Shown here: positions 4,022 to 35,814 of the stretch, in pieces
Layout of the letters: each line of letters begins with the position of its first letter
How positions within the stretch are numbered: the stretch's first letter is position 1
Assembly: GCA_018333535.1 (NCBI GenBank)
Contig: JAGXTA010000046.1
Coordinates: forward strand, 20,551 to 84,550
Length of the DNA: 64,000 nt
Direction of reading: 5' to 3'
From: Deltaproteobacteria bacterium
GTDB taxonomy: Bacteria; Desulfobacterota; BSN033; UBA1163
Translations under genes and position numbers: made by a program
The notes under the pieces: generated by a model
What the model saw: only the letters and a program-made list of their open reading frames with translations
The model's database searches: none
What the model was told of the DNA's origin: nothing

Positions 4022-5029
4022 CTACCAAACGCCGTCAATCTTTGCATGGCAATGCAGGCATTCCCCTCCCACCACCTCATTCCTGACAACCCTGAAACCC
4101 ATCCTTTCGATCACCCTTCGTCCACAATGGGGACATAAGGTATCCTCCCCTTCCTGCCCTGGGATATTACCGCAATAAACATATCGAAGCCCTGCCTTCA
4201 TCCCGATCTCCCTTGCCCGGTGAAGGGTTGCCGCTGGAGTTCTCGGAAGGTTGAGCATCTTATACGTGGGATAGAAGGCGGAGAGATGCCATGGAACCTC
4301 CGCCCCCAACGAGAGGATAAACCGGGCGATCTCTTCAAACTCTCTATCAGAATCGTTGAGGGTCGGAATGACGAGCGTGGTGATCTCCACCCAGATCCCC
4401 AACTCTTTCATCAATTTCAGGCTTTCGAGAACGGGCTTGAGCCTCGCTCCGCACACCTCCTTATAAAACTTCTCCTGAGAGCTCTTCAAATCGACATTCG
4501 CCCCATCGAGATAGGGCTGGATCGTTTTCAGAGCCTCCTCCGTCATATAGCCATTGGTGACAAAGACATTCCTGATCCCTTCCTGACTTGCCAGGACCGC
4601 TGTCTCATACGCATATTCAAAGTAAATGGTGGGTTCGGTATAGGTGTAGGAGATGGAACGGCATCGATTCTCCTTTGCGAGAGAAACGATCTTGGATGGC
4701 GGAACTACGGATCCATCAATTCTTTTTCCGTCGATCGGCATCTGGGAGATCTCATGATTCTGGCACTGGAGACAGTGAAAGTTACATCCCACCGTAGCCA
4801 TGGAGAAGGAGGTCGAACCGGGCAGGAGATGAAAAAGAGGCTTCTTCTCAATGGGGTCGACATTTAGGGAGATGGCCTTTCCGAAAACGAGACTGAAGAG
4901 TAGGCCCTCCCTGTTCTCCCTCACCCCGCAGATTCCACTTTTTGAAGGCGGGATGACACATCGATGACTGCAGAGGTGGCACTTGACCTTTCCCTCTTCC
5001 AAGGGACTATAAAGCATGGCCTCCTTCAT
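4022..5029 (-). CDS. AmmeMemoRadiSam-system radical SAM enzyme (AmrS-like)
   Basis: The N-terminal CHLCSHRC, the GICGVREN motif and the CNFHCLQCQNHEIS radical-SAM cluster motif fit pyruvate-formate-lyase-activase-like AmrS. Confidence 0.75.
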   Translation of the reverse strand: MKEAMLYSPLEEGKVKCHLCSHRCVIPPSKSGICGVRENREGLLFSLVFGKAISLNVDPIEKKPLFHLLPGSTSFSMATVGCNFHCLQCQNHEISQMPIDGKRIDGSVVPPSKIVSLAKENRCRSISYTYTEPTIYFEYAYETAVLASQEGIRNVFVTNGYMTEEALKTIQPYLDGANVDLKSSQEKFYKEVCGARLKPVLESLKLMKELGIWVEITTLVIPTLNDSDREFEEIARFILSLGAEVPWHLSAFYPTYKMLNLPRTPAATLHRAREIGMKAGLRYVYCGNIPGQEGEDTLCPHCGRRVIERMGFRVVRNEVVGGECLHCHAKIDGVW

Positions 5030-11644: not shown

Positions 11645-12421
11645 ATGGGCTTCAGGTACACCATGATTGGCGCTGCCATATGTATCTTCATCTTCTACTT
11701 TGGCCTTCTTGCCTCGCTCCTCTTCTCGGCAAGCCTGAAGGGTTTCTGGGAATCCCTGTTGCATCCTTCCACCCTCTTCTCCATTCGGCTGAGCCTCATC
11801 GCCGCCACCCTCGCCACACTTTTAGCTGTGGCTATCGGTCTCCCGTCAGCCTATGCCCTCTCCCGCTTCCAATTCAGAGGAAAGCAAATCGTGGATACGT
11901 TTCTCGAAATTCCGATCATCATGTCGCCCATTGCCCTGGGCGCCTCATTCCTCGTCTTCTTTAATACTCCCTTGGGGGAAGCCATCCAGAGAAAAGGAAT
12001 CTTCTTCGTATTTGAATTTCCCGGCATCATCCTTGCTCAATTCGCCACCATTGCAGGTCTGGCAACCCGGCTGATGAAAGCCTCCCTTGATGAAATCTCT
12101 CCACGATATGAAGCCGTGGCCCGCTCTCTCGGCTCCTCCTCATGGCAGGCCTTTTATCGTGTTACACTTCCCCTCTCCTTCCGGGGGCTTTTAGCTGCGA
12201 TCATCCTCTCCTGGGCGAAGGCCGCAGGCGAGTTCGGCGCCACCGTGACTCTTGCAGGCGCCATGCCAGGAAAAACCGAGACCATGCCCATTGCCATCTT
12301 TACGGCTCTGGCTTCAGCCAACATAGAAAAGGCGATTGTTTTGATTCTCATCCTCGTCTTCCTTGGTTTGGTCGCACTCTACGCTGTCCGATTTACCGGA
12401 AAGATCTATCGTTATGATTAA
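11645..12421 (+). CDS. Molybdate/tungstate ABC transporter permease (ModB-like)
   Basis: Six TM segments and the EAA-like loop ...SWAKAAGEFGATVTLAG typical of ModB/CysTW permeases. RBS AAGGAGG lies upstream. Confidence 0.85.
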   Translation: MGFRYTMIGAAICIFIFYFGLLASLLFSASLKGFWESLLHPSTLFSIRLSLIAATLATLLAVAIGLPSAYALSRFQFRGKQIVDTFLEIPIIMSPIALGASFLVFFNTPLGEAIQRKGIFFVFEFPGIILAQFATIAGLATRLMKASLDEISPRYEAVARSLGSSSWQAFYRVTLPLSFRGLLAAIILSWAKAAGEFGATVTLAGAMPGKTETMPIAIFTALASANIEKAIVLILILVFLGLVALYAVRFTGKIYRYD

Positions 12422-12499
12422 GGGATCTTCTCCCAGTCGAGTGGGTAAAAACCTCATGCAGATATGGCTATTTATTATCCCCCTTTGGAAAAGGGCAAA

Positions 12500-12540
12500 C
12501 ACTAACATTCCCCCCCTTTGGCAAAGGGGGGCGAGGGGGG
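12500..12540. repeat. Palindromic hairpin CCCCCCCTTTGGCAAAGGGGGGCGAGGGGGG
   Basis: Perfect palindrome. A related copy lies at 12672-12712 (CCCCCTCTTTGCCAAAGAGGGGG) and another at 50985-51025. Confidence 0.5.
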
Positions 12541-12751
12541 ATTTTAAGAACAAATGCTTTCTTACGATAAACAGTTGAAAATATTTTCCCAGCATCTCAG
12601 AAAAAATATTACAGAGATGTCTTTGAGAATATGGGCGGAGTGATGGAAGGGATATGGAGTTGCTTATGATTTACAAAATCTCCCCTGCCCCCTCTTTGCC
12701 AAAGAGGGGGAGAGAAAAACCAGATATGACCCACTCGATAGGGAAAAGATT

Positions 12752-13846
12752 ATGATTAAGATTGAGGGGCTTACCATCCTTCTCGGTTCTTTTCGTTTAA
12801 AGGATTTCCACATTGAAATTGCGGAGGGAGAGTTTCACTTTCTCCTCGGTCCCACGGGTAGCGGGAAAACCCTGATCCTGGAGTCGATTATCGGACTGCA
12901 TAAACCCAAAAAAGGAAAGATATGGATTGGCGAAAAGGAGGTTCAAAACCTGCCTCCTGAGCGGAGGGAGATTTCTTATGTTCCTCAAGACCTGGCTCTC
13001 TTCCCGCATCTAAGTGTGAAGGAGAATATCCTTTATGGAATTAGGGCAAAAAATCACTCCTTAAAAACCTATGAGGAATATGTCGGGTCTCTCATTCAGG
13101 TCATGAAAGTTGGACATCTTCTCGAACGATACCCGGCCAATCTTAGCGGAGGGGAGAAGAAACGGGTGGCGCTTCTCAGAGCGCTGGCTCCAAAGCCAAA
13201 ACTCCTTTTGCTTGACGAGCCCCTCTCCGGTCTGGACCCCTCCATCAAATTTGAAATTCAGCAACTCTTAAAAACCCTCCACGCCTCTTTTCATCCAACG
13301 GTTTTATGTGTTTCCCATGACTTCGAGGAAGCCTACCTCCTGGGAGATAAGATGACCATTTTCATTGATGGAAAAGTGGAGCAGGTCGGAAAAAGAGACG
13401 ATGTTTTTTTAAAACCCAGATCCCAAAAGGTGGCACAATTTCTGGGGTTAAAGAATCTTTACAGGGGCAAAGTCCTGACAAAGGGGGAGGCCGATCAACG
13501 ATGGGTTCTCGACATCAACGGTCTCCGATTTTCCGTACCGGGCAGTGCCTGTCAGGATCAGATGGAGATAGGAAAAGAGGTGGACATCTACATCCGACCT
13601 GAAGAGGTGATGATCCTCCGTGAAGGGAAGTCTGTCAAAGAATCTCTGAAGAAGAATATCTTCGAGGGGAAAATTTCGGATATTGCCAATAGAGGCAGAC
13701 ACCATACCGTGGCATTCCAGGATGAAGAAAGACGGATCTTTTTCGAAATCTCCATTCCCAATTACGCCTTCCGGAATCTCGATCTGTCGATTGGTAAAAC
13801 CACAAAGGTCGCCCTCCGCGACGAATCCCTCTGGGTGATGGAATAA
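12752..13846 (+). CDS. Molybdate/tungstate ABC transporter ATP-binding protein with a C-terminal TOBE-like domain (ModC-like)
   Basis: Walker A GPTGSGKT, signature LSGGEKKRVAL and Walker B LLLDEP. The roughly 130-aa C-terminal extension is typical of ModC. Confidence 0.85.
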   Translation: MIKIEGLTILLGSFRLKDFHIEIAEGEFHFLLGPTGSGKTLILESIIGLHKPKKGKIWIGEKEVQNLPPERREISYVPQDLALFPHLSVKENILYGIRAKNHSLKTYEEYVGSLIQVMKVGHLLERYPANLSGGEKKRVALLRALAPKPKLLLLDEPLSGLDPSIKFEIQQLLKTLHASFHPTVLCVSHDFEEAYLLGDKMTIFIDGKVEQVGKRDDVFLKPRSQKVAQFLGLKNLYRGKVLTKGEADQRWVLDINGLRFSVPGSACQDQMEIGKEVDIYIRPEEVMILREGKSVKESLKKNIFEGKISDIANRGRHHTVAFQDEERRIFFEISIPNYAFRNLDLSIGKTTKVALRDESLWVME

Positions 13847-13878
13847 TTTAAGAGGATGCTGAAAAAGCCAACCGCCAT

Positions 13879-13947
13879 GTCACTCCCGCGAAAGCGGGAG
13901 TCCAGAAGACCTTTGAAAAACTGGATTCCTGCTTCCGCAGGAATGAC
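13879..13947. repeat. Structured inverted-repeat module IR-a (outer stem GTCAC.../...GTGAC enclosing two hairpins)
   Basis: The hairpins are TCCCGCgaaaGCGGGA and TCCTGCttccGCAGGA, within the outer stem GTCACTCC...GGAATGAC. Confidence 0.55.
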
Positions 13948-14077
13948 CTTCTTCAGCCAGAATGGACTTTTTCAGCAACCTCCTAATAAAACCTCCTAAT
14001 AAATCTTGACGAAGCCGTAGTTTTATGAGATGTTTACAGCACAATGATAGTTGGCACAAACCAAAGGAGAAACTGCG

Positions 14078-14521
14078 ATGGGCGCCCGTGACGAATTCGC
14101 AACCAAAGATGATTTAGAAAAATCCTTAGGAAAATTTAAAGAAGAGATTATCCATGAATTTCATATTGTTGCTGAGGGACTGACTGACCATATGAAACTT
14201 CTGGCTGAAGGCCATTCAGGTTTAGCCCAAAGACTTGACCGGGTGGAAACAAGGCTTGGCGGAGTAGAGATCAGACTTGATCGAACAGAAGCAGGTCAGT
14301 TGGGAATCGTTCAACGACTTGATCATATGGAAACAAGGTTTGACCATATGGAAACAAGGTTTGACCATATGGAAGCAGAAAACGTACGTCAGCACATGGA
14401 AACTCGCTCACTCATTAAACTCTCCTTTTCCGAACTGGACAACCGACTCTCCAGTCTGGAGTTACAGGTCAAAGAACTGCAAGAATGGAGAAAACAGGTC
14501 CAGGATAGGCTTCAAATTTAA
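14078..14521 (+). CDS. Hypothetical coiled-coil protein with tandem heptapeptide-like repeats (RLDHMETRFDHMETRFDHMEAE)
   Basis: RBS AAAGGAG lies 7 nt upstream of ATG 14078. Heptad-like charged repeats. Contains a 21-bp tandem DNA repeat. Confidence 0.5.
   Translation: MGARDEFATKDDLEKSLGKFKEEIIHEFHIVAEGLTDHMKLLAEGHSGLAQRLDRVETRLGGVEIRLDRTEAGQLGIVQRLDHMETRFDHMETRFDHMEAENVRQHMETRSLIKLSFSELDNRLSSLELQVKELQEWRKQVQDRLQI
14321..14383 (+). repeat. Tandem 21-bp repeat x3 (GACCATATGGAAACAAGGTTT) inside the coiled-coil ORF
   Basis: Seen directly in the sequence. The third unit is degenerate. Confidence 0.8.
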
Positions 14522-14805
14522 CATTCCTCTTTTAAACCATTATATCTATCCATCATTATCTTTTCCCTACCCATCAGAAAATACAACCCCTTATTTGCAT
14601 AGAAAATAGCTTCCTTAAATCCCTCCCCGCCTCCCTTTGCCCTCCAGTTCAGAGACCGCTCTGGGTCGGAGACCAAAGGGAGGTGTAATTATCCCCCTTT
14701 GCAAAACTGATCCTTACCCATAACCTGGGTTGCTGGACACAAGGGTTAAGTTGAATATTGTTAACAGGTCGATATCATTATTAATTTTTAAGTTTGTCAT
14801 TCCTG

Positions 14806-14864
14806 CGGAAGCAGGAATCCAGATGTTTCTGTTGGTCCTGGATTCCCGTTTTCACGGGAATGAC
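14806..14864. repeat. Structured inverted-repeat module IR-b (reverse complement of IR-a)
   Basis: The hairpins are TTCCTGCggaaGCAGGAA and TTCCCGttttcACGGGAA, within the outer stem GTCATTCC...GGAATGAC. Confidence 0.55.
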
Positions 14865-15311
14865 ACCTAAATACAGAATGCAAAACCTTCAATTACACCG
14901 GTCATGCCCCCCTTCCTTGTGTTCAGCCCCCCGACTTATGGGACACGGTTAGTTTGCAAAAGGGGGACTGAGGGGGATTTTCATGGTTCGTGCCTGTCCC
15001 GTATAAACGGGAGGTGTCGCTCCGTCATGAAGGATTGCTCTGAAATAAATCCCTCTGGGTGATGAGCTAACTTAAAATCAGAGGAAGTTTGCTACGATTT
15101 TCATGGTTTTTGGTAACCAATTGTACGTGGTCAATTTCCATGATTTTTCAGAATTATTCCCTAAGATTTCTTCCTGAATTATTCAGTTCCTTAATTTCTA
15201 AAAAAGGTGTATATTACAACCCATAAGCAGCGGAATGGTATTTTCTTCATAACAAGATAATTTTCATTTATTGATTTAAAAAATTCCTATTTGGTCATTG
15301 GAGAGCCTGGA

Positions 15312-15608
15312 GTGAAAAAATTATTGGGTTCACTACTTGGCATATTGGTTTTGATTGCAGGATTATACCTTGAATTTTTTGGGATTTATCATTCATTTAG
15401 CAGGCACGGTGTAAAGGATGGGTTAATATCTGTTTTTATTCCACCTTACGGATGGTACCGAGCAATTGAATATTGGTGGCATGATGATTATGCTGGTATA
15501 GAGACCATGAACCCAGTGTGGGAGGCTTTGGGCCCGACAACGATGGTGGATGGAGAAGAAAGGTACTCGGGGGATTCTTTTTTGATAGAAAGAGTATGGA
15601 GAGAATAG
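15312..15608 (+). CDS. Hypothetical small membrane protein
   Basis: GTG start preceded by GGAGAG. One long hydrophobic segment LLGSLLGILVLIAGLYLEFFGI. AT-rich island context. Confidence 0.3.
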   Translation: MKKLLGSLLGILVLIAGLYLEFFGIYHSFSRHGVKDGLISVFIPPYGWYRAIEYWWHDDYAGIETMNPVWEALGPTTMVDGEERYSGDSFLIERVWRE

Positions 15609-15862
15609 AAGGGAAGATCAAATTGTGGGTGAGGATCAAAATACATAATCCAATGGTTCGACGGGAAGGAAAAGAAACTTTTAGATGTGATGAAATCATC
15701 CTAAAATGGATTGTCGATTGTGAAACGAAGGAAGTAAAAACAGATTATATTGTGCTCTATTGGCAGGCGAAGAAACAGTATAGTAAAAAGAAAGATGATT
15801 TGAAGTGGCCTATAATGAAGAACACAAATGCTTATCTGATATACGAATTATTTTGTTTTTAG
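15596..15862 (+). CDS. Hypothetical protein
   Basis: ORF in the AT-rich island, taken from the internal ATG (MERIEGKIKLW...). No recognisable domain. Confidence 0.25.
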   Translation: MERIEGKIKLWVRIKIHNPMVRREGKETFRCDEIILKWIVDCETKEVKTDYIVLYWQAKKQYSKKKDDLKWPIMKNTNAYLIYELFCF

Positions 15863-17337: not shown

Positions 17338-17479
17338 CTGAAATGCCTCACCTAAAGAATTATTCCAGCGGATGGATTACAGTCACTGCTGTTTTTAGCT
17401 GTTAATGTCCGCTTTCAAAGCGTAATCCTCATCCTCAAGGATCACACTCGGAACAACATTTGTAGGTGCTATAGGCACT

Positions 17480-17704
17480 CTGAAAACTGGAAAGTATAAA
17501 ATAGAGCTTCTGTTAACCCCGTTTGAAGGCCCCAGCATTCCTGCCTGTCGGCAGACAGGTATGCTTGAGGATGGTAGAAATAGAAAGCATCCCTGCCTGT
17601 CGGCAGACAGGAGCTCCTCATTTAGTGTGGGGTTAAACCCCTGCCTCTTCTAACGGGGTTTACTCGCCCTCCATCTGAATCTCAATCTTTTTGGGTTTCT
17701 CGCA
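17480..17704. repeat. Direct repeat DR1 (about 225 bp). It contains two CCTGCCTGTCGGCAGACAGG palindromes and a copy of the last 15 codons of mobB.
   Basis: Near-identical to 18428-18650. The end of the repeat encodes ...CEKPKKIEIQMEGE*, compared with ...IEIQIEGE* for authentic mobB. Confidence 0.75.
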
Positions 17705-17781: not shown

Positions 17782-18042
17782 GTGGCTAAAATAGATGATA
17801 TACTTGCACAAATTAAGCAAAATCCAAGAGATGTTCGATTCAGTGATTTGTGCAAGGTATGTAATCATTTTTTTGGGGAGCCTCGCCAAAGTGGGAGCAG
17901 TCATCGAATTTACAAAACCCCGTGGCAGGGTGATCCTCGAATAAATATCCAGAACCATAAAGGAAAGGCCAAGGCATATCAGGTGAAGCAGGTGCTATTG
18001 GCAATTGACAGATTGGAGGTAAGTCATGGCCCTGAAAAATGA
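17782..18042 (+). CDS. hicA: HicA-family toxin (mRNA interferase)
   Basis: Small basic protein with the ...SGSSHRIYKTPWQGDPRINIQNHKGK... motif typical of the HicA/YcfA fold. Overlaps the downstream hicB. Confidence 0.75.
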   Translation: MAKIDDILAQIKQNPRDVRFSDLCKVCNHFFGEPRQSGSSHRIYKTPWQGDPRINIQNHKGKAKAYQVKQVLLAIDRLEVSHGPEK

Positions 18043-18355
18043 TCGATATACCTATCGGGTAACCTGGTCTGAAGATGATAACGAGTATGTGGGTTTGTGC
18101 GCTGAATTTCCCAGCTTGAGTTGGCTGGCTAAGACTCCAGGTATAGCCTTAAAAGGAATCCGTAAATTAGTTGAAGATGTCGTGAAGGATATGCATAACG
18201 CAGGTGAAGCTGTTCCTGATCCAATCGCTTGCAGGCATTACAGTGGAAAATTCATAGTGCGGGTTCCTCCACAAGTTCATCGAAAACTCGCAATCCAAGC
18301 AGCCGAGTCTGGAGTCAGCCTGAACCGTCTTGCCAGTTCAAAGTTAAGTCAATAA
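18026..18355 (+). CDS. hicB: HicB-family antitoxin
   Basis: N-terminal HicB fold (YRVTWSEDDNEYVGLCAEFPSL). C-terminal RHH-like DNA-binding tail (VHRKLAIQAAESGVSLNRL). Confidence 0.75.
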   Translation: MALKNDRYTYRVTWSEDDNEYVGLCAEFPSLSWLAKTPGIALKGIRKLVEDVVKDMHNAGEAVPDPIACRHYSGKFIVRVPPQVHRKLAIQAAESGVSLNRLASSKLSQ

Positions 18356-18427
18356 AGCTCTGCGCCTATCATAACCTTCAATTCCTGAACATGGTTGCAG
18401 TAATGACTTGGAGGTGAAATACGCAAA

Positions 18428-18650
18428 CTGAAAACTGGAAAGCATAAAATAGATATCATGTTTACCCCGTTAGAAAGCCTCAGCATTCCTGCCTGTCGGC
18501 AGACAGGTATGCTGAGGATGGTAGAAATAGAAAGCATCCCTGCCTGCGGCAGGCAGGAGCTCCTTATTTAGGGCGAGGTCAAACCCCTGCCCTTTCTGAC
18601 GGGGTTTACTCGCCCTCAATCTGAATCTCAATCTTTTTGGGTTTCTCGCA
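18428..18650. repeat. Direct repeat DR2 (about 223 bp) overlapping the authentic 3' end of mobB
   Basis: See DR1. Together the repeats bracket the hicAB cassette. Confidence 0.75.
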
Positions 18651-19256
18651 TCCCTTCAATGAACGGACCATTCCCTTAATCGACCCTAACAGGAAATCTC
18701 TGATAAAAGGTTTTAACGGAACGGCCCTGTCATCTACCCTTAGAGTGATTTGTTCTTCCTTTTTTGACTTTAAAAACTTCTTTTCGATAAAATCACCCAC
18801 TCCTTTGACATCATCAAGAAAGAAGCAGGAGACCCCGACATTGAACTCCTTGTCCGATACAATGGCGATGAGGTTATCCTCTTTGGTGCAGAGAAGCTCC
18901 TTGTGCTTTTCCGTTCTGAAGATTTCGATCTTCGGTTGGACATCCTTTTTGTAGCCCTCTGAAAGAATAAGGTCTACATCCTGAACCAACTTGTCCCGGA
19001 TTTCATCCAACCGTAAATCCTTCTCCACATCCCGGATCAGCGCCACTTTGGCAGGAGAGGAGATGATCGTTGTATGGGCGCCTGCCTGCTTATGCCGCCA
19101 GCTATCCTTCCCCTCCCGGTCCACCTCAAACCCGTGAACATCGTGCTTCACGGTTGCGATCCGGTAACCCCTGCGGACTAGCTCAGGCAAAAGTTTCTCG
19201 ATAAATGTGGTCTTTCCGCTATCTGACTTACCAACAATAGAAATGATGGGAATCAC
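18606..19256 (-). CDS. mobB: Molybdopterin-guanine dinucleotide biosynthesis adapter protein MobB
   Basis: IVGKSDSGKTTFIEKL...VKH Walker-A region. Probable GTG start with RBS AAAGGAG 6 nt upstream. The ORF track extends a further 25 codons upstream. Confidence 0.85.
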   Translation of the reverse strand: MIPIISIVGKSDSGKTTFIEKLLPELVRRGYRIATVKHDVHGFEVDREGKDSWRHKQAGAHTTIISSPAKVALIRDVEKDLRLDEIRDKLVQDVDLILSEGYKKDVQPKIEIFRTEKHKELLCTKEDNLIAIVSDKEFNVGVSCFFLDDVKGVGDFIEKKFLKSKKEEQITLRVDDRAVPLKPFIRDFLLGSIKGMVRSLKGCEKPKKIEIQIEGE

Positions 19257-32641: not shown

Positions 32642-32713
32642 GTATGGCACTTCTACGGTTCTTTTCTTAAGAGGGTGTTCGGGTAGTAAAAAGATAAAAA
32701 GGAGGTGAAAACC

Positions 32714-32998
32714 ATGTTATCAAATATACCCATCAATCTTGAGCTTGTTGGAAAGGGAGACACGGACAAAGAAATACTAAGGGCCGGGGTCATCGCGGAA
32801 CTGGACGCTATCAACCTTTACGAACAAATGGCCGCCATGGCCAAAGATAAGAATCTCAAAAAAATTCTGCTTGATATAGCCAAAGAAGAGAAAACTCATG
32901 TCGGAGAATTCCTGACACTGCTCCTGAGAAAAGACGGAGAGCAAGAAGCGGAGCTAGAAAAGGGAAAAAAAGAGGTTGAAGAGTTGATGGAAAAGTAG
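32714..32998 (+). CDS. Ferritin-like/rubrerythrin-like small protein (EncFtn-like)
   Basis: ELDAINLYEQMA...IAKEEKTHVGEF, with the E..H di-iron ligand pattern. Strong RBS AAGGAGGTG. An alternative GTG lies at 32705. Confidence 0.6.
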   Translation: MLSNIPINLELVGKGDTDKEILRAGVIAELDAINLYEQMAAMAKDKNLKKILLDIAKEEKTHVGEFLTLLLRKDGEQEAELEKGKKEVEELMEK

Positions 32999-34920: not shown

Positions 34921-35658
34921 ATGGAAGAACTCAAAAAAGTCTATTTCATAGCTAAAAAAGATATGGGGGCCTACTACCTCAAGCCTCCCTTAATCAGTTG
35001 GGGATTGATGCTTCCCATCGTCTTTGTATTAGCTTTCTATTTCAGAAATCCGGCGGGAATCAAAGAGGTCGTCCCAGGATTGATTGGTTTGACCCTTCTC
35101 TTCTCATGCACGTCCATGGCAGCCATCGTGATTACCTTTGAGAAAAGAATAGGTGCTCTGGAGCGGCTCCTCCTGGCACCATTGGAGATCAGAACGATCC
35201 TCTTCGGCAAGACCCTTGGAAGTTCTGTATTCGGGTTGGTTATCACCATCGTCATCACAATATTTCTCATTCCAATTATAGGCCTTTCTATTAATTATCC
35301 CTTTTCTTTTTCTCTCATTATCATCCTTTCTGGTATCGCCTTCTCACTCCTTGGAATCCTTATTTCTGTAGGAGTAAAGGAAGTCTTCGAAGCCATGACC
35401 ATGTCCAATTTCTTTCGATTCCCAATGATATTTTTATGCGGGGTCTTCTTTCCTGTGCCTTCCATGCCCTTCCCTCTTCCTATCCTCTCTTATCTCCTAC
35501 CATTGACCTATACGGTTGATGGTTTGAAACATTGCCTGTTGGAAGATAAAGGAATGATCCCTTTTTATCTGGATTTATTAATTTTATTAGGATTCGTTTT
35601 TTTACTCTTTAGTCTCTCGTTATTCATTTTTAAGAAAAGAATTCGCCAAGAATTCTGA
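34921..35658 (+). CDS. ABC-2 family transporter permease
   Basis: Six TM segments with an ABC-2-like topology. The ORF track begins at 34909 inside a REP element. Confidence 0.8.
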   Translation: MEELKKVYFIAKKDMGAYYLKPPLISWGLMLPIVFVLAFYFRNPAGIKEVVPGLIGLTLLFSCTSMAAIVITFEKRIGALERLLLAPLEIRTILFGKTLGSSVFGLVITIVITIFLIPIIGLSINYPFSFSLIIILSGIAFSLLGILISVGVKEVFEAMTMSNFFRFPMIFLCGVFFPVPSMPFPLPILSYLLPLTYTVDGLKHCLLEDKGMIPFYLDLLILLGFVFLLFSLSLFIFKKRIRQEF

Positions 35659-35673
35659 AAGGAGGTGAAAACC

Positions 35674-35814
35674 ATGTGCCAAAGTAAATCTGGTTGCACC
35701 CAACCCGAAAATCTGAAGGGAACCCCAAAGGATTGCTCGGCCGAGCAGATCAACGTCTGTCATCCTGGAGAGAAGGGGCATCCCTGTGAGGCTGAGGAAA
35801 CGGAAAGAAAATAG
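35674..35814 (+). CDS. Small Cys-rich protein (46 aa, 5 Cys)
   Basis: Strong RBS AAGGAGGTG, then a 7-nt gap, then ATG. MCQSKSGCTQPENLKGTPKDCSAEQINVCHPGEKGHPCEAEETERK. Below the 60-aa ORF-track cutoff. Confidence 0.4.
   Translation: MCQSKSGCTQPENLKGTPKDCSAEQINVCHPGEKGHPCEAEETERK

Follow-up and report, generated by a model that had tools for sequence, protein, structure and literature searches.

In the 64-kb stretch of deltaproteobacterial DNA analysed here (hereafter the window), a modC-like gene, the third of modA-modB-modC, ends in a 17-base sequence that recurs 1.2 kb downstream, and between the two copies lie a coiled-coil gene (cc) and two hairpin modules (A and B). Further on, a variable island and a hicA/hicB pair lead to mobB, which is convergent with modC (Table 1). 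The initial annotation had taken the 1.2 kb for one insertion with a 17-bp target duplication. We have compared the window with relatives, given as numbered loci (L) and as homologues of ModC and of a hydrolase described below (P), and we discuss how the repeat, the gene and the modules may have come together at this place.

Table 1. Features from modC to mobB, with their positions in the window
Feature	Position	Strand	Basis or remark
modC-like ABC ATPase gene, 364 aa, ends ..ESLWVME*	12752..13846	+	Pfam ABC_tran, weak TOBE_2 match
First direct repeat (DR1), final sense codons of modC (..E S L W V M)	13824..13840	+	17-mer search
Last codon GAA + TAA (E* end)	13841..13846	+	C-termini of 120 homologues; junction alignment A1
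Hairpin 3′ of modC, arms 13848-13867 / 13967-13986, 90% complementary, module A and flanks in the loop	13848..13986		inverted-repeat search
Module A, hairpin doublet (13879-13905 on +, 13921-13947 on -, 15-nt spacer)	13879..13947		pattern, Ssn-related motif (SRM), folding
13-bp tandem duplication AACCTCCTAATAA, 2 copies	13977..14003	+	tandem-repeat search
Conserved block upstream of cc, CTTGACGAAG..TTTTATGAGAT	14005..14031	+	alignment A1; L039/L044
cc gene, 147-aa coiled-coil protein	14078..14521	+	open reading frame and domain scans
21-bp tandem repeat inside cc, 2.7 copies	14319..14374	+	tandem-repeat search
~95-nt tail after the cc stop	14522..14616	+	alignment A2
421-nt palindromic repeat cluster, including module B	14626..15046		alignment A2
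Module B, hairpin doublet (14796-14822 on +, 14838-14864 on -)	14796..14864		pattern, SRM, folding, BLAST
Second direct repeat (DR2) + AGC TAA CT, putative relic of an S*-type modC 3′ end (..WVMS*)	15048..15072	+	relic-bearing loci
Conserved non-coding block after the relic, common to relic-bearing loci; variable island next	15065..15180	+	alignment A2
Direct repeat of 245 nt flanking hicAB, left copy; its final ~40 nt (17664-17704) form a mobB 3′-end relic	17460..17704		
Right copy of the 245-nt repeat, continuing into the real mobB 3′ end	18408..18650		mobB gene 18606-19256, minus strand

The direct repeat itself stands as the initial annotation described it. The sequence AATCCCTCTGGGTGATG occurs exactly twice in the window (13824-13840 and 15048-15064), the two copies being identical at 17 of 17 positions, and no further copy was found there even with 2 mismatches allowed; the chance expectation is 0.01, and a Markov-shuffled window contains about 0.3 exact direct repeats of 15 nt or more spaced by up to 3 kb, so that such repeats are rare. 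The similarity extends to 24 of 28 positions, with a sharp left border and a ragged right one. In the reading frame of modC, a single codon and a TAA stop come after each copy, GAA TAA after DR1 (..WVME*) and AGC TAA after DR2 (..WVMS*). The 23 nt of DR2 through its stop are the real modC end of L016, and the ModC homologues P0001, P0003 and P0005 also end in ..WVMS. ModC has many homologues at 74-94% identity in Syntrophaceae-like metagenome-assembled genomes, and those that carry a name come from Syntrophaceae, Deltaproteobacteria or Desulfobacterota. Of the 16 relative loci retrieved first, 15 conserve DR1 at 17/17 positions and L017 shows 3 mismatches; in loci retrieved later, DR1 varies at 1-2 synonymous or L/F positions. 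On the best reading of these data, DR2 would be an inherited and displaced original modC end, kept as a non-functional relic. The ModC homologues P0001-P0120 differ widely in their final residue, a hypervariable position (E, S, K, N, D, G, T, A, P, V, I, R, H, F and others) that follows a nearly invariant ESLWVM; in the contexts examined, a final E goes with cc directly downstream and a final S with the toxin-antitoxin pair vapBC.

The comparison of loci places this repeat in a wider pattern. The window matches metagenome contigs of JGI 3300001813, ERZ27300255 and SRR6212587 at 100%, in the same orientation throughout, and the 1.2-kb unit with its modules is found in these source contigs only. 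The relatives fall into three arrangements. In group (a), the order is modC(E*)-cc-mobB, the cc stop overlapping the stop of the convergent mobB or lying a few bases from it, and neither relic nor module is present at the modC-mobB site (L012-15, L023, L026, L028, L030, L031, L034, L040, L048 and L061, with ModC identity down to 76%). In group (b), modC(S*) is followed by vapBC, by cc or a cc remnant, and by mobB (L006-11, L016-18, L032). In group (c), which comprises the window, L019/L024, L022, L025, L027, L060 and L062, modC and cc are followed by the ~95-nt tail, the relic (aaaacaaAYCCCTCTGGGTGATGAGCTAACTT), a conserved block of ~115 nt and variable DNA. The relic with AGCTAACTT lies ~95 nt 3′ of cc in all of the other members of this group, and matches the modC end at 14-17 of 17 positions. 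These alignments show that the duplicated modC end is inherited in seven related loci and is independent of the modules. In L022 and L027, vapBC on the left goes together with a relic on the right, so that the two sides assort independently; moreover, modC is a nucleotide mosaic between lineages, which points to frequent recombination.

The modules are a different matter. They lie 38 nt (A) and 183 nt (B) inside the 17-mer repeats, and both are missing from six other loci that have cc, tail and relic; since those six loci keep the second 17-mer, the modules are later insertions. In the simplest relatives, the modC stop leads to the conserved block upstream of cc in about 10-16 nt, and L012 carries there a homologous short hairpin, uninterrupted and without the insert (alignment A1). 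Module A would have landed independently of module B, into the loop of this hairpin after modC. Module B belongs to the 421-nt cluster, which is not present in five related loci, contains a palindrome (14630-14683) and an inverted repeat (14692-14744 / 14915-14967; alignment A2), and is flanked by a 9-nt duplication, AAATCCCTC, at 14617-14625 and 15047-15055, the right copy overlapping the start of DR2. The alignment identifies the cluster as a later and separate insertion, and module B would have come inside it, at the edge of the relic and with the cluster's own 9-nt duplication. Module B sits at the centre of an inverted repeat with 53-nt arms. That both modules occupy the loops of larger palindromes suggests that they may have inserted into extruded hairpins. 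Judged by these comparisons, the 1.2 kb arose by at least four separate, nested events and is not one element.

Between the modules, which are separated by 848 nt, lies the cc gene; the coiled-coil reading frame with 21-bp tandem repeats that had been noticed there is confirmed. The repeat encodes RFDHMET heptads, and its copy number differs in L017, L019 and L012. More generally, the number of heptads and of 21-aa repeats is specific to the lineage, and the protein ranges from 105 to 164 aa (alignment A3). The window holds one copy of cc, and a search at E <= 1e-10 puts no more than 29 cluster representatives in its small family. Searches for a function in Pfam, NCBIfam, PHROGs, PADLOC and the PDB returned generic coiled-coil noise only. 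The conserved block upstream of the gene is largely invariant in eight aligned loci of the modC context, and also forms the left end of the cassette at the hydrolase locus described next; the promoter scan called no canonical sigma-70 promoter upstream of cc. The tail that follows the gene is ~90% conserved in every relic-bearing locus.

The second context of cc offers the clearest view of how the gene can move. Distant cc homologues (about 57% identity) follow an alpha/beta hydrolase gene in L039, L042 and L044, in the order hydrolase end, cc, a tail of ~30 nt, and a second, decaying hydrolase 3′ end that has a stop of its own. In these filled sites the hydrolase ends ..ILEFLT*, and the relic of L039 reads ..AILQFLNQNLP*. 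Hydrolase relatives that end ..FLNQ(D/N)LP* (P0129, P0162) are without cc, and their gene end directly joins the DNA seen past the L039 relic. The empty sites are L183-L189; in alignment A4, positions 3802-3842 of L183 align to both sides of the L039 insert, giving a duplication of ~45 nt around an insertion of ~570 nt, with a change of the hydrolase C-terminus from ..FLNQDLP* to ..FLT*. The cassette consists of the upstream block CTTGACCAA.., the gene and a short tail. The alignment thus presents a clean filled/empty pair, in which a cc cassette was inserted inside the last codons of a gene, with duplication of the gene end and supply of a new codon and stop. The initial annotation had proposed the coiled-coil gene as cargo and a search for empty sites: insertion of cc with a duplication is indeed seen at the hydrolase locus, where the empty sites exist, whereas none was recovered at modC, and the cargo does not form one element with the modules.

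The architecture of the window is the same as that of the hydrolase locus, with a duplication of 17 nt (23 nt in L022, where both copies end AGYTAA). Because of the hydrolase pair, the cc cassette is most likely the added segment at modC as well, and we infer by analogy that the process seen there also made the modC duplication. We therefore favour, with moderate confidence, an account in which the modC-mobB interval is a hot spot of successive duplicative cassette additions, the 17-mer being the footprint of one of them and the modules later arrivals. Each small cassette added between modC and the convergent mobB would duplicate a stretch of its target. In the case of cc, the segment would have joined modC six bases before its stop, and would have comprised a last codon of its own with a stop, the conserved block upstream of cc, cc itself and the ~95-nt tail, about 0.65 kb before the later additions; the original end (AATCCCTCTGGGTGATG AGC TAA) would have been left downstream as a non-functional relic. 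modC stays intact because the incoming DNA brings a last codon and a stop. Such an addition could proceed by capture at a staggered break with fill-in, or by homology-facilitated illegitimate recombination after DNA uptake. The long duplications around other inserts count for this account: 11 nt (between modB and modC), 33 nt (vapBC), 245 nt (hicAB) and 9 nt (the module-B cluster). The hicAB case is the longest: hicA/hicB (17782-18355) is bracketed by the 245-nt repeat at 89% identity, which carries a CCCCGTT..AACGGGG miniature inverted-repeat transposable element (MITE) and the last ~40 nt of mobB; in L025 the segment occurs once, without hicAB or the MITE, and L060 is like the window.

Several observations weigh on the other side. 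A cassette at modC predicts an empty site, CGACGAATCCCTCTGGGTGATGAGCTAACTTAAAAGGAGAGG, in which the modC body joins straight to the DNA downstream of the relic; no such site, with modC-S* joined directly to post-relic DNA, was recovered, and a search for the ancestral order modC-S*-island by means of the first open reading frame past the relic found that frame to be an orphan. Relatives down to 76% ModC identity (L012-15, L017, L023, L028, L030, L031, L034, L040, L048) have the same E* left junction and carry cc hard against mobB, with neither tail nor relic, so that at this locus cc is apparently older than the relic, and the DNA to the right of cc may be the newcomer. For the ~95-nt tail no source was detected: its comparison with mobB, modC and the tail of the hydrolase locus, to which it is unrelated, gave no similarity above shuffles. 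Duplications flank cc in two contexts only, a small sample, and none was seen around cc in about 30 other loci outside the modC and hydrolase contexts. Finally, we know of no mobility enzyme for such cassettes, and neither the vicinity of the element nor the 20 larger window open reading frames scanned yielded a transposase, integrase or invertase.

Some of these points lead to a different history, a real possibility that we consider on balance unlikely, in which the ancestral order was modC(E*)-cc-mobB and a fragment from a strain with another allele, modC(S*)-island-mobB, entered the space between cc and mobB by homology-facilitated illegitimate recombination, recombining within mobB at one end and joined illegitimately at the other. 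With it would have come the final ~25 nt of the donor modC; the 17-mer would be a passenger relic, and cc would never have moved here. Besides the many relatives in which cc lies flush with mobB behind the same junction, the divergence between relic and modC is no greater than that between relic-bearing loci, which would make the relic younger than the residence of cc. Furthermore, the mobB 3′-end relic (17664-17704) lies inside the island, so that relics of a modC end and of a mobB end bracket a complete alternative intergenic allele; the mosaic modC speaks for frequent recombination; and all four combinations of left cassette (E*, or S* with vapBC) and right state (relic or none) are seen. 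On the other hand, this history leaves the 95-nt tail between cc and the relic as unexplained filler, no donor-type allele without cc was found, and the hydrolase locus displays cc cassettes that insert with duplication of a gene end. Successive duplicative additions and such a stacking of alleles agree that the repeat is the footprint of a joining of two pieces at the modC end, that the modules are unrelated to it, and that there is no sign of inversion.

The remaining explanations are far less probable. Integrative elements, such as tRNA- or gene-end-specific islands, insert at the 3′ end of a gene, which they restore, and integration by a tyrosine or serine recombinase would make the 17-28-nt repeat an att core, the element-borne modC end (attP) restoring the gene. 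The position of the repeat at a gene end, its sharp left and ragged right border, the intact gene and the displaced end kept as a relic all resemble such islands. We nevertheless consider this improbable: the cassette lacks a recombinase gene, the island and the scanned open reading frames of the window yielded none, and the duplications around one and the same cargo come from two unrelated genes, modC and the hydrolase gene, which argues for a target-derived duplication and not for an att site borne by the element. A dif/Xer-like or integron attC-like nature of the 28-mer was rejected by eye, as its arms have no palindromic symmetry and no conserved GTTRRRY. The single element of the initial annotation, be it MITE-like, cargo-carrying and non-autonomous, or an invertible cassette, bounded by the modules and with a 17-bp target duplication, has in its favour the perfect direct repeat and the identical 27-mers of the two modules, which face inward around cc and form a 32-nt inverted repeat (94%). 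It is very improbable in our view, given the distance of the modules from the 17-mers, the six loci that have the repeat and cc without them, the arrival of module B in a separate 421-nt insertion, and the scattering of the module family over many phyla and over other intergenic sites of the relatives. The modules are thus not element ends, and the sequences that do abut DR1 and DR2 are not complementary to each other, as terminal inverted repeats would be; the 3′ end of modC is duplicated around added DNA, and what falls away is a transposon duplication tied to the inverted modules. As for an invertible cassette, one orientation only is seen in three assemblies and in all relatives, and neither an invertase nor a transposase was found near the element or among the open reading frames scanned. 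Chance similarity, or the local slippage in replication that had been named as the alternative that would overturn the insertion, could appeal to the shortness of the repeat and to nothing beyond that; with the low chance expectation given above, a relic position conserved in seven loci, and 1.2 kb between the copies that is not itself duplicated, it retains hardly any credibility.

The modules deserve consideration in their own right. Both are 69 nt long and consist of two 27-nt units, GTCAYTCC-N10-GGARTCCAG, set tail to tail around a 15-nt spacer; the four units of modules A and B are the only exact matches to this pattern in the 64 kb. The two modules had been described as reverse complements of each other. 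Module A does match the reverse complement of B at 54/69 positions (47/69 for B directly), but each module is self-complementary at 46/69, so that part of this relation is trivial. Similarly, the three-helix junction proposed for each is the minimum-energy fold of single-stranded DNA for module A only, at an ensemble frequency of 0.04-0.08, and not for module B. The robust structure, as single-stranded DNA, is a pair of 8-bp hairpins with 4-nt loops (z about -4.6 to -5.5); a single unit forms an 8-bp stem with a 4-nt loop at -7.8 to -9.8 kcal/mol (z about -4.1 to -4.4), with oriented, non-palindromic flanks.

This unit is almost identical to the consensus CGTCATTCCCGCGMAVGCGGGAATCYRG of the Neisseria Transformation Sequence (NTS). 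According to a report in Nature Communications in 2025 (PMC11893778), this repeat is an oriented hairpin, encompasses dRS3, and is a substrate that SsnA, a 94-aa GIY-YIG nuclease, binds and cleaves as single-stranded DNA only; in many phyla, ssn genes are flanked by related sequences, the Ssn-related motifs (SRM). The published degenerate SRM expression, HGTCWYN(0-2)YYVSBRHN(0-5)WNVSBRGN(0-2)RNCYNB, is matched in the 64 kb by units 1 and 4 alone; units 2 and 3 depart from its strict form, by differences confined to the stem. The unit GTCATTCC-stem-loop-GGAATCCAG shares with the NTS and SRM the 8-bp hairpin, the GTCA 5′ flank and the C after the stem, together with an intergenic position, clustering around a variable gene in an NTS-gene-NTS layout, and a distribution across phyla. 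By their sequence and predicted fold, modules A and B are NTS/SRM hairpin doublets, that is, of the repeat type described in 2025. They differ in being tail-to-tail doublets with a 12-18-nt spacer, an arrangement of which the consulted passages of that paper make no mention (PMC11893778), in their Syntrophaceae-like anaerobic host, which is not a known competent symbiont, and in the lack of an ssn gene: none was found in the window by a motif search and tblastn with two GIY-YIG queries, a crude search, the second of which was sensitive enough to recover the Ssn-like gene mentioned below.

A scan with the doublet pattern GGAATCCAG-N12-18-CTGGATTCC, one genome per species, found at least 120 stretches across many phyla, among the matches listed Planctomycetota, Nitrospirota, sphingomonads, Rickettsia, Chloroflexota, Patescibacteria, Syntrophaceae, Smithella metagenome-assembled genomes and others, and most of the matches listed have the full GTCATTCC..GGAATGAC doublet. 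In addition, doublets occupy other intergenic sites in relatives of the locus. Within the 64 kb of the window, the search for further module copies proposed at the outset yields the four units only. The BLAST similarity of the window modules to other genomes ends at the edges of the ~70-nt doublet, and this confinement, with the full doublets found elsewhere, indicates that the repeated unit is a REPIN-like doublet. As side observations, one Patescibacteria contig (L181, 5181-5597) encodes an Ssn-like GIY-YIG protein of 91 aa, and doublets lie 75 nt from the 3′ end of the gene and 1.5 kb away, which fits the published ssn-NTS association; the Rfam family WsnRNA46 of Wolbachia gives a sub-threshold match over module B (14775-14884; 30.8 bits against a gathering score of 65.3), and this family probably contains a Wolbachia version of the repeat. 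At gathering thresholds, Rfam finds a tRNA-Lys only in the whole window, and a permissive scan of 13700-15300 gave sub-threshold matches only. A longer NTS-containing element, CCTCTAAAAAT-GTCATT..GAGTGAC-AARTTGA..TTAGAGG, lies just 3′ of the gene-end relic in both contexts, in L062 at ~650-790 (modC), and in L042 at 4555-4650 and L044 at 632-730 (hydrolase), and repeats seem to accumulate beside gene-end relics.

REPINs, REP doublets that fold into hairpins and are mobilised by RAYT transposases (PMC3116915, PMC3337134), offer a formal parallel: two inverted repeats with a short spacer act as a unit that is dispersed, intergenic, polymorphic in presence between close relatives and likely non-autonomous. 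In contrast, the 5′ tetranucleotide is GTCA in the window and GTAG in REP sequences, the protein proposed in the literature for repeats of the window type is a GIY-YIG nuclease and not a Y1 HUH transposase, and no RAYT (Y1 transposase) gene was found among the window open reading frames scanned. A doublet offers one NTS on each strand. In a host with an Ssn nuclease, single strands of either polarity would then be cut beside the hairpins, as described for transforming DNA in the Neisseria study (PMC11893778), and by the same analogy an Ssn nuclease may act at the present locus. Whether selfish or domesticated, the repeats could tag a variable locus so that incoming single strands are cut there. 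Modules A and B add new members to the kind described in 2025; they extend the NTS/SRM repeats to anaerobic Syntrophaceae-like bacteria, with the repeated unit apparently a tail-to-tail doublet, and the natural filled/empty comparisons show doublets that come and go at intergenic hairpins. The doublet unit and these polymorphisms are modest additions, which bear on the mobility of NTS/SRM repeats and on the roles of Ssn outside Neisseria.

Cassette hot spots are known elsewhere. Minimal mobile elements and variable intergenic cassettes were reportedly described in Neisseria by Saunders and Snyder in 2002 and by Snyder and co-workers in 2007, and homology-facilitated illegitimate recombination in transformable bacteria is said to have been treated by de Vries and Wackernagel in 2002. 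The latter term is also used in PMC8116780. As with the Neisseria elements, small cassettes that differ by strain (cc, vapBC, hicAB, orphans) lie here between two conserved genes, with mosaic flanking genes and short repeats nearby. The cassettes of the window are, however, stacked additively, each bracketed by a duplicated piece of its target (9-245 nt); since a plain double homologous crossover yields no such duplications, they differ from replacement in Neisseria. Long target duplications of variable length are also left by the IS1634/IS1549 group of the IS4 family (PMC2266710), whose insertion sequences are autonomous and have both a DDE transposase and terminal inverted repeats, whereas the window cassettes have neither. 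Cassettes with long and variable target duplications and without a recombinase would thus be an unusual variant of known cassette hot spots.

One clean filled/empty pair documents that a cassette of gene and predicted promoter can be inserted within the last codons of a host gene without a recognisable recombinase. If a dedicated mechanism is at work, duplicative cassette insertion would be new; if one-sided homologous and illegitimate recombination accounts for it, the locus is a good natural example of the pile-up of toxin-antitoxin and orphan genes between conserved genes. In annotation, DR2 and similar relics, like the hypervariable final residue of ModC, may be read as footprints of such events. 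We put forward only tentatively, as a distinctly doubtful generalization, that recombinase-free small cassettes (cc, vapBC, hicAB, repeat clusters) form a class in Syntrophaceae-like bacteria, added at gene ends with target duplications of 9, 11, 17-23, 33, ~45 and 245 nt and with a new last codon and stop. If true, this would imply an insertion mechanism unlike the known transposition, integron or integrase pathways, with a possible connection to single-strand nicking at NTS hairpins by Ssn-type nucleases.

Other features of the locus may be recorded here. Between modB and modC lies a MITE-like insert of 327 nt (12423-12749) with terminal inverted repeats of ~21 nt and internal CCCCCTTTGG..GGGGGATTTT palindromes; the 11-nt duplication TTATGATTAAG flanks this insert, the whole spanning 12412-12760, and preserves the modB stop and the modC start. 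L006 and L012 have empty sites for this insert, the two genes overlapping there by 8 nt. In L022 (594-1510), and also in L027, vapBC (RHH and PIN domains) lies between modC(S*) and cc, and the 33-nt direct repeat in L022, CCCTATC.TCTTC.CAAT.TTCTCATTAA.AAT, matches at 29/33 positions (z = 12). In the island, the 236-aa product of the open reading frame at 16627-17337 matches the phage family phrog_19541 (E = 5e-17), and the small frames at 15291-15608 and 15518-15862 are without relatives. A MITE family with ends CCCCGTTAGAAAGCC..CTAACGGGG, internal CCTGCCTGTCGGCAGACAGG hairpins and an apparent TTTAC duplication occupies intergenic sites that differ by lineage (L025 4640-4775, L006 7130-7230, window 17510-17660). 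Elsewhere in the window, a 20-nt exact repeat, AAAGGAGGTGAAAACCATGT, which includes a ribosome-binding site and an ATG, occurs at 32698-32717 and 35658-35677 and brackets ~3 kb with genes for a ferritin-like protein, a peroxiredoxin and an ABC-2 transporter; this pair is possibly another duplicative insertion, at the start of a gene.

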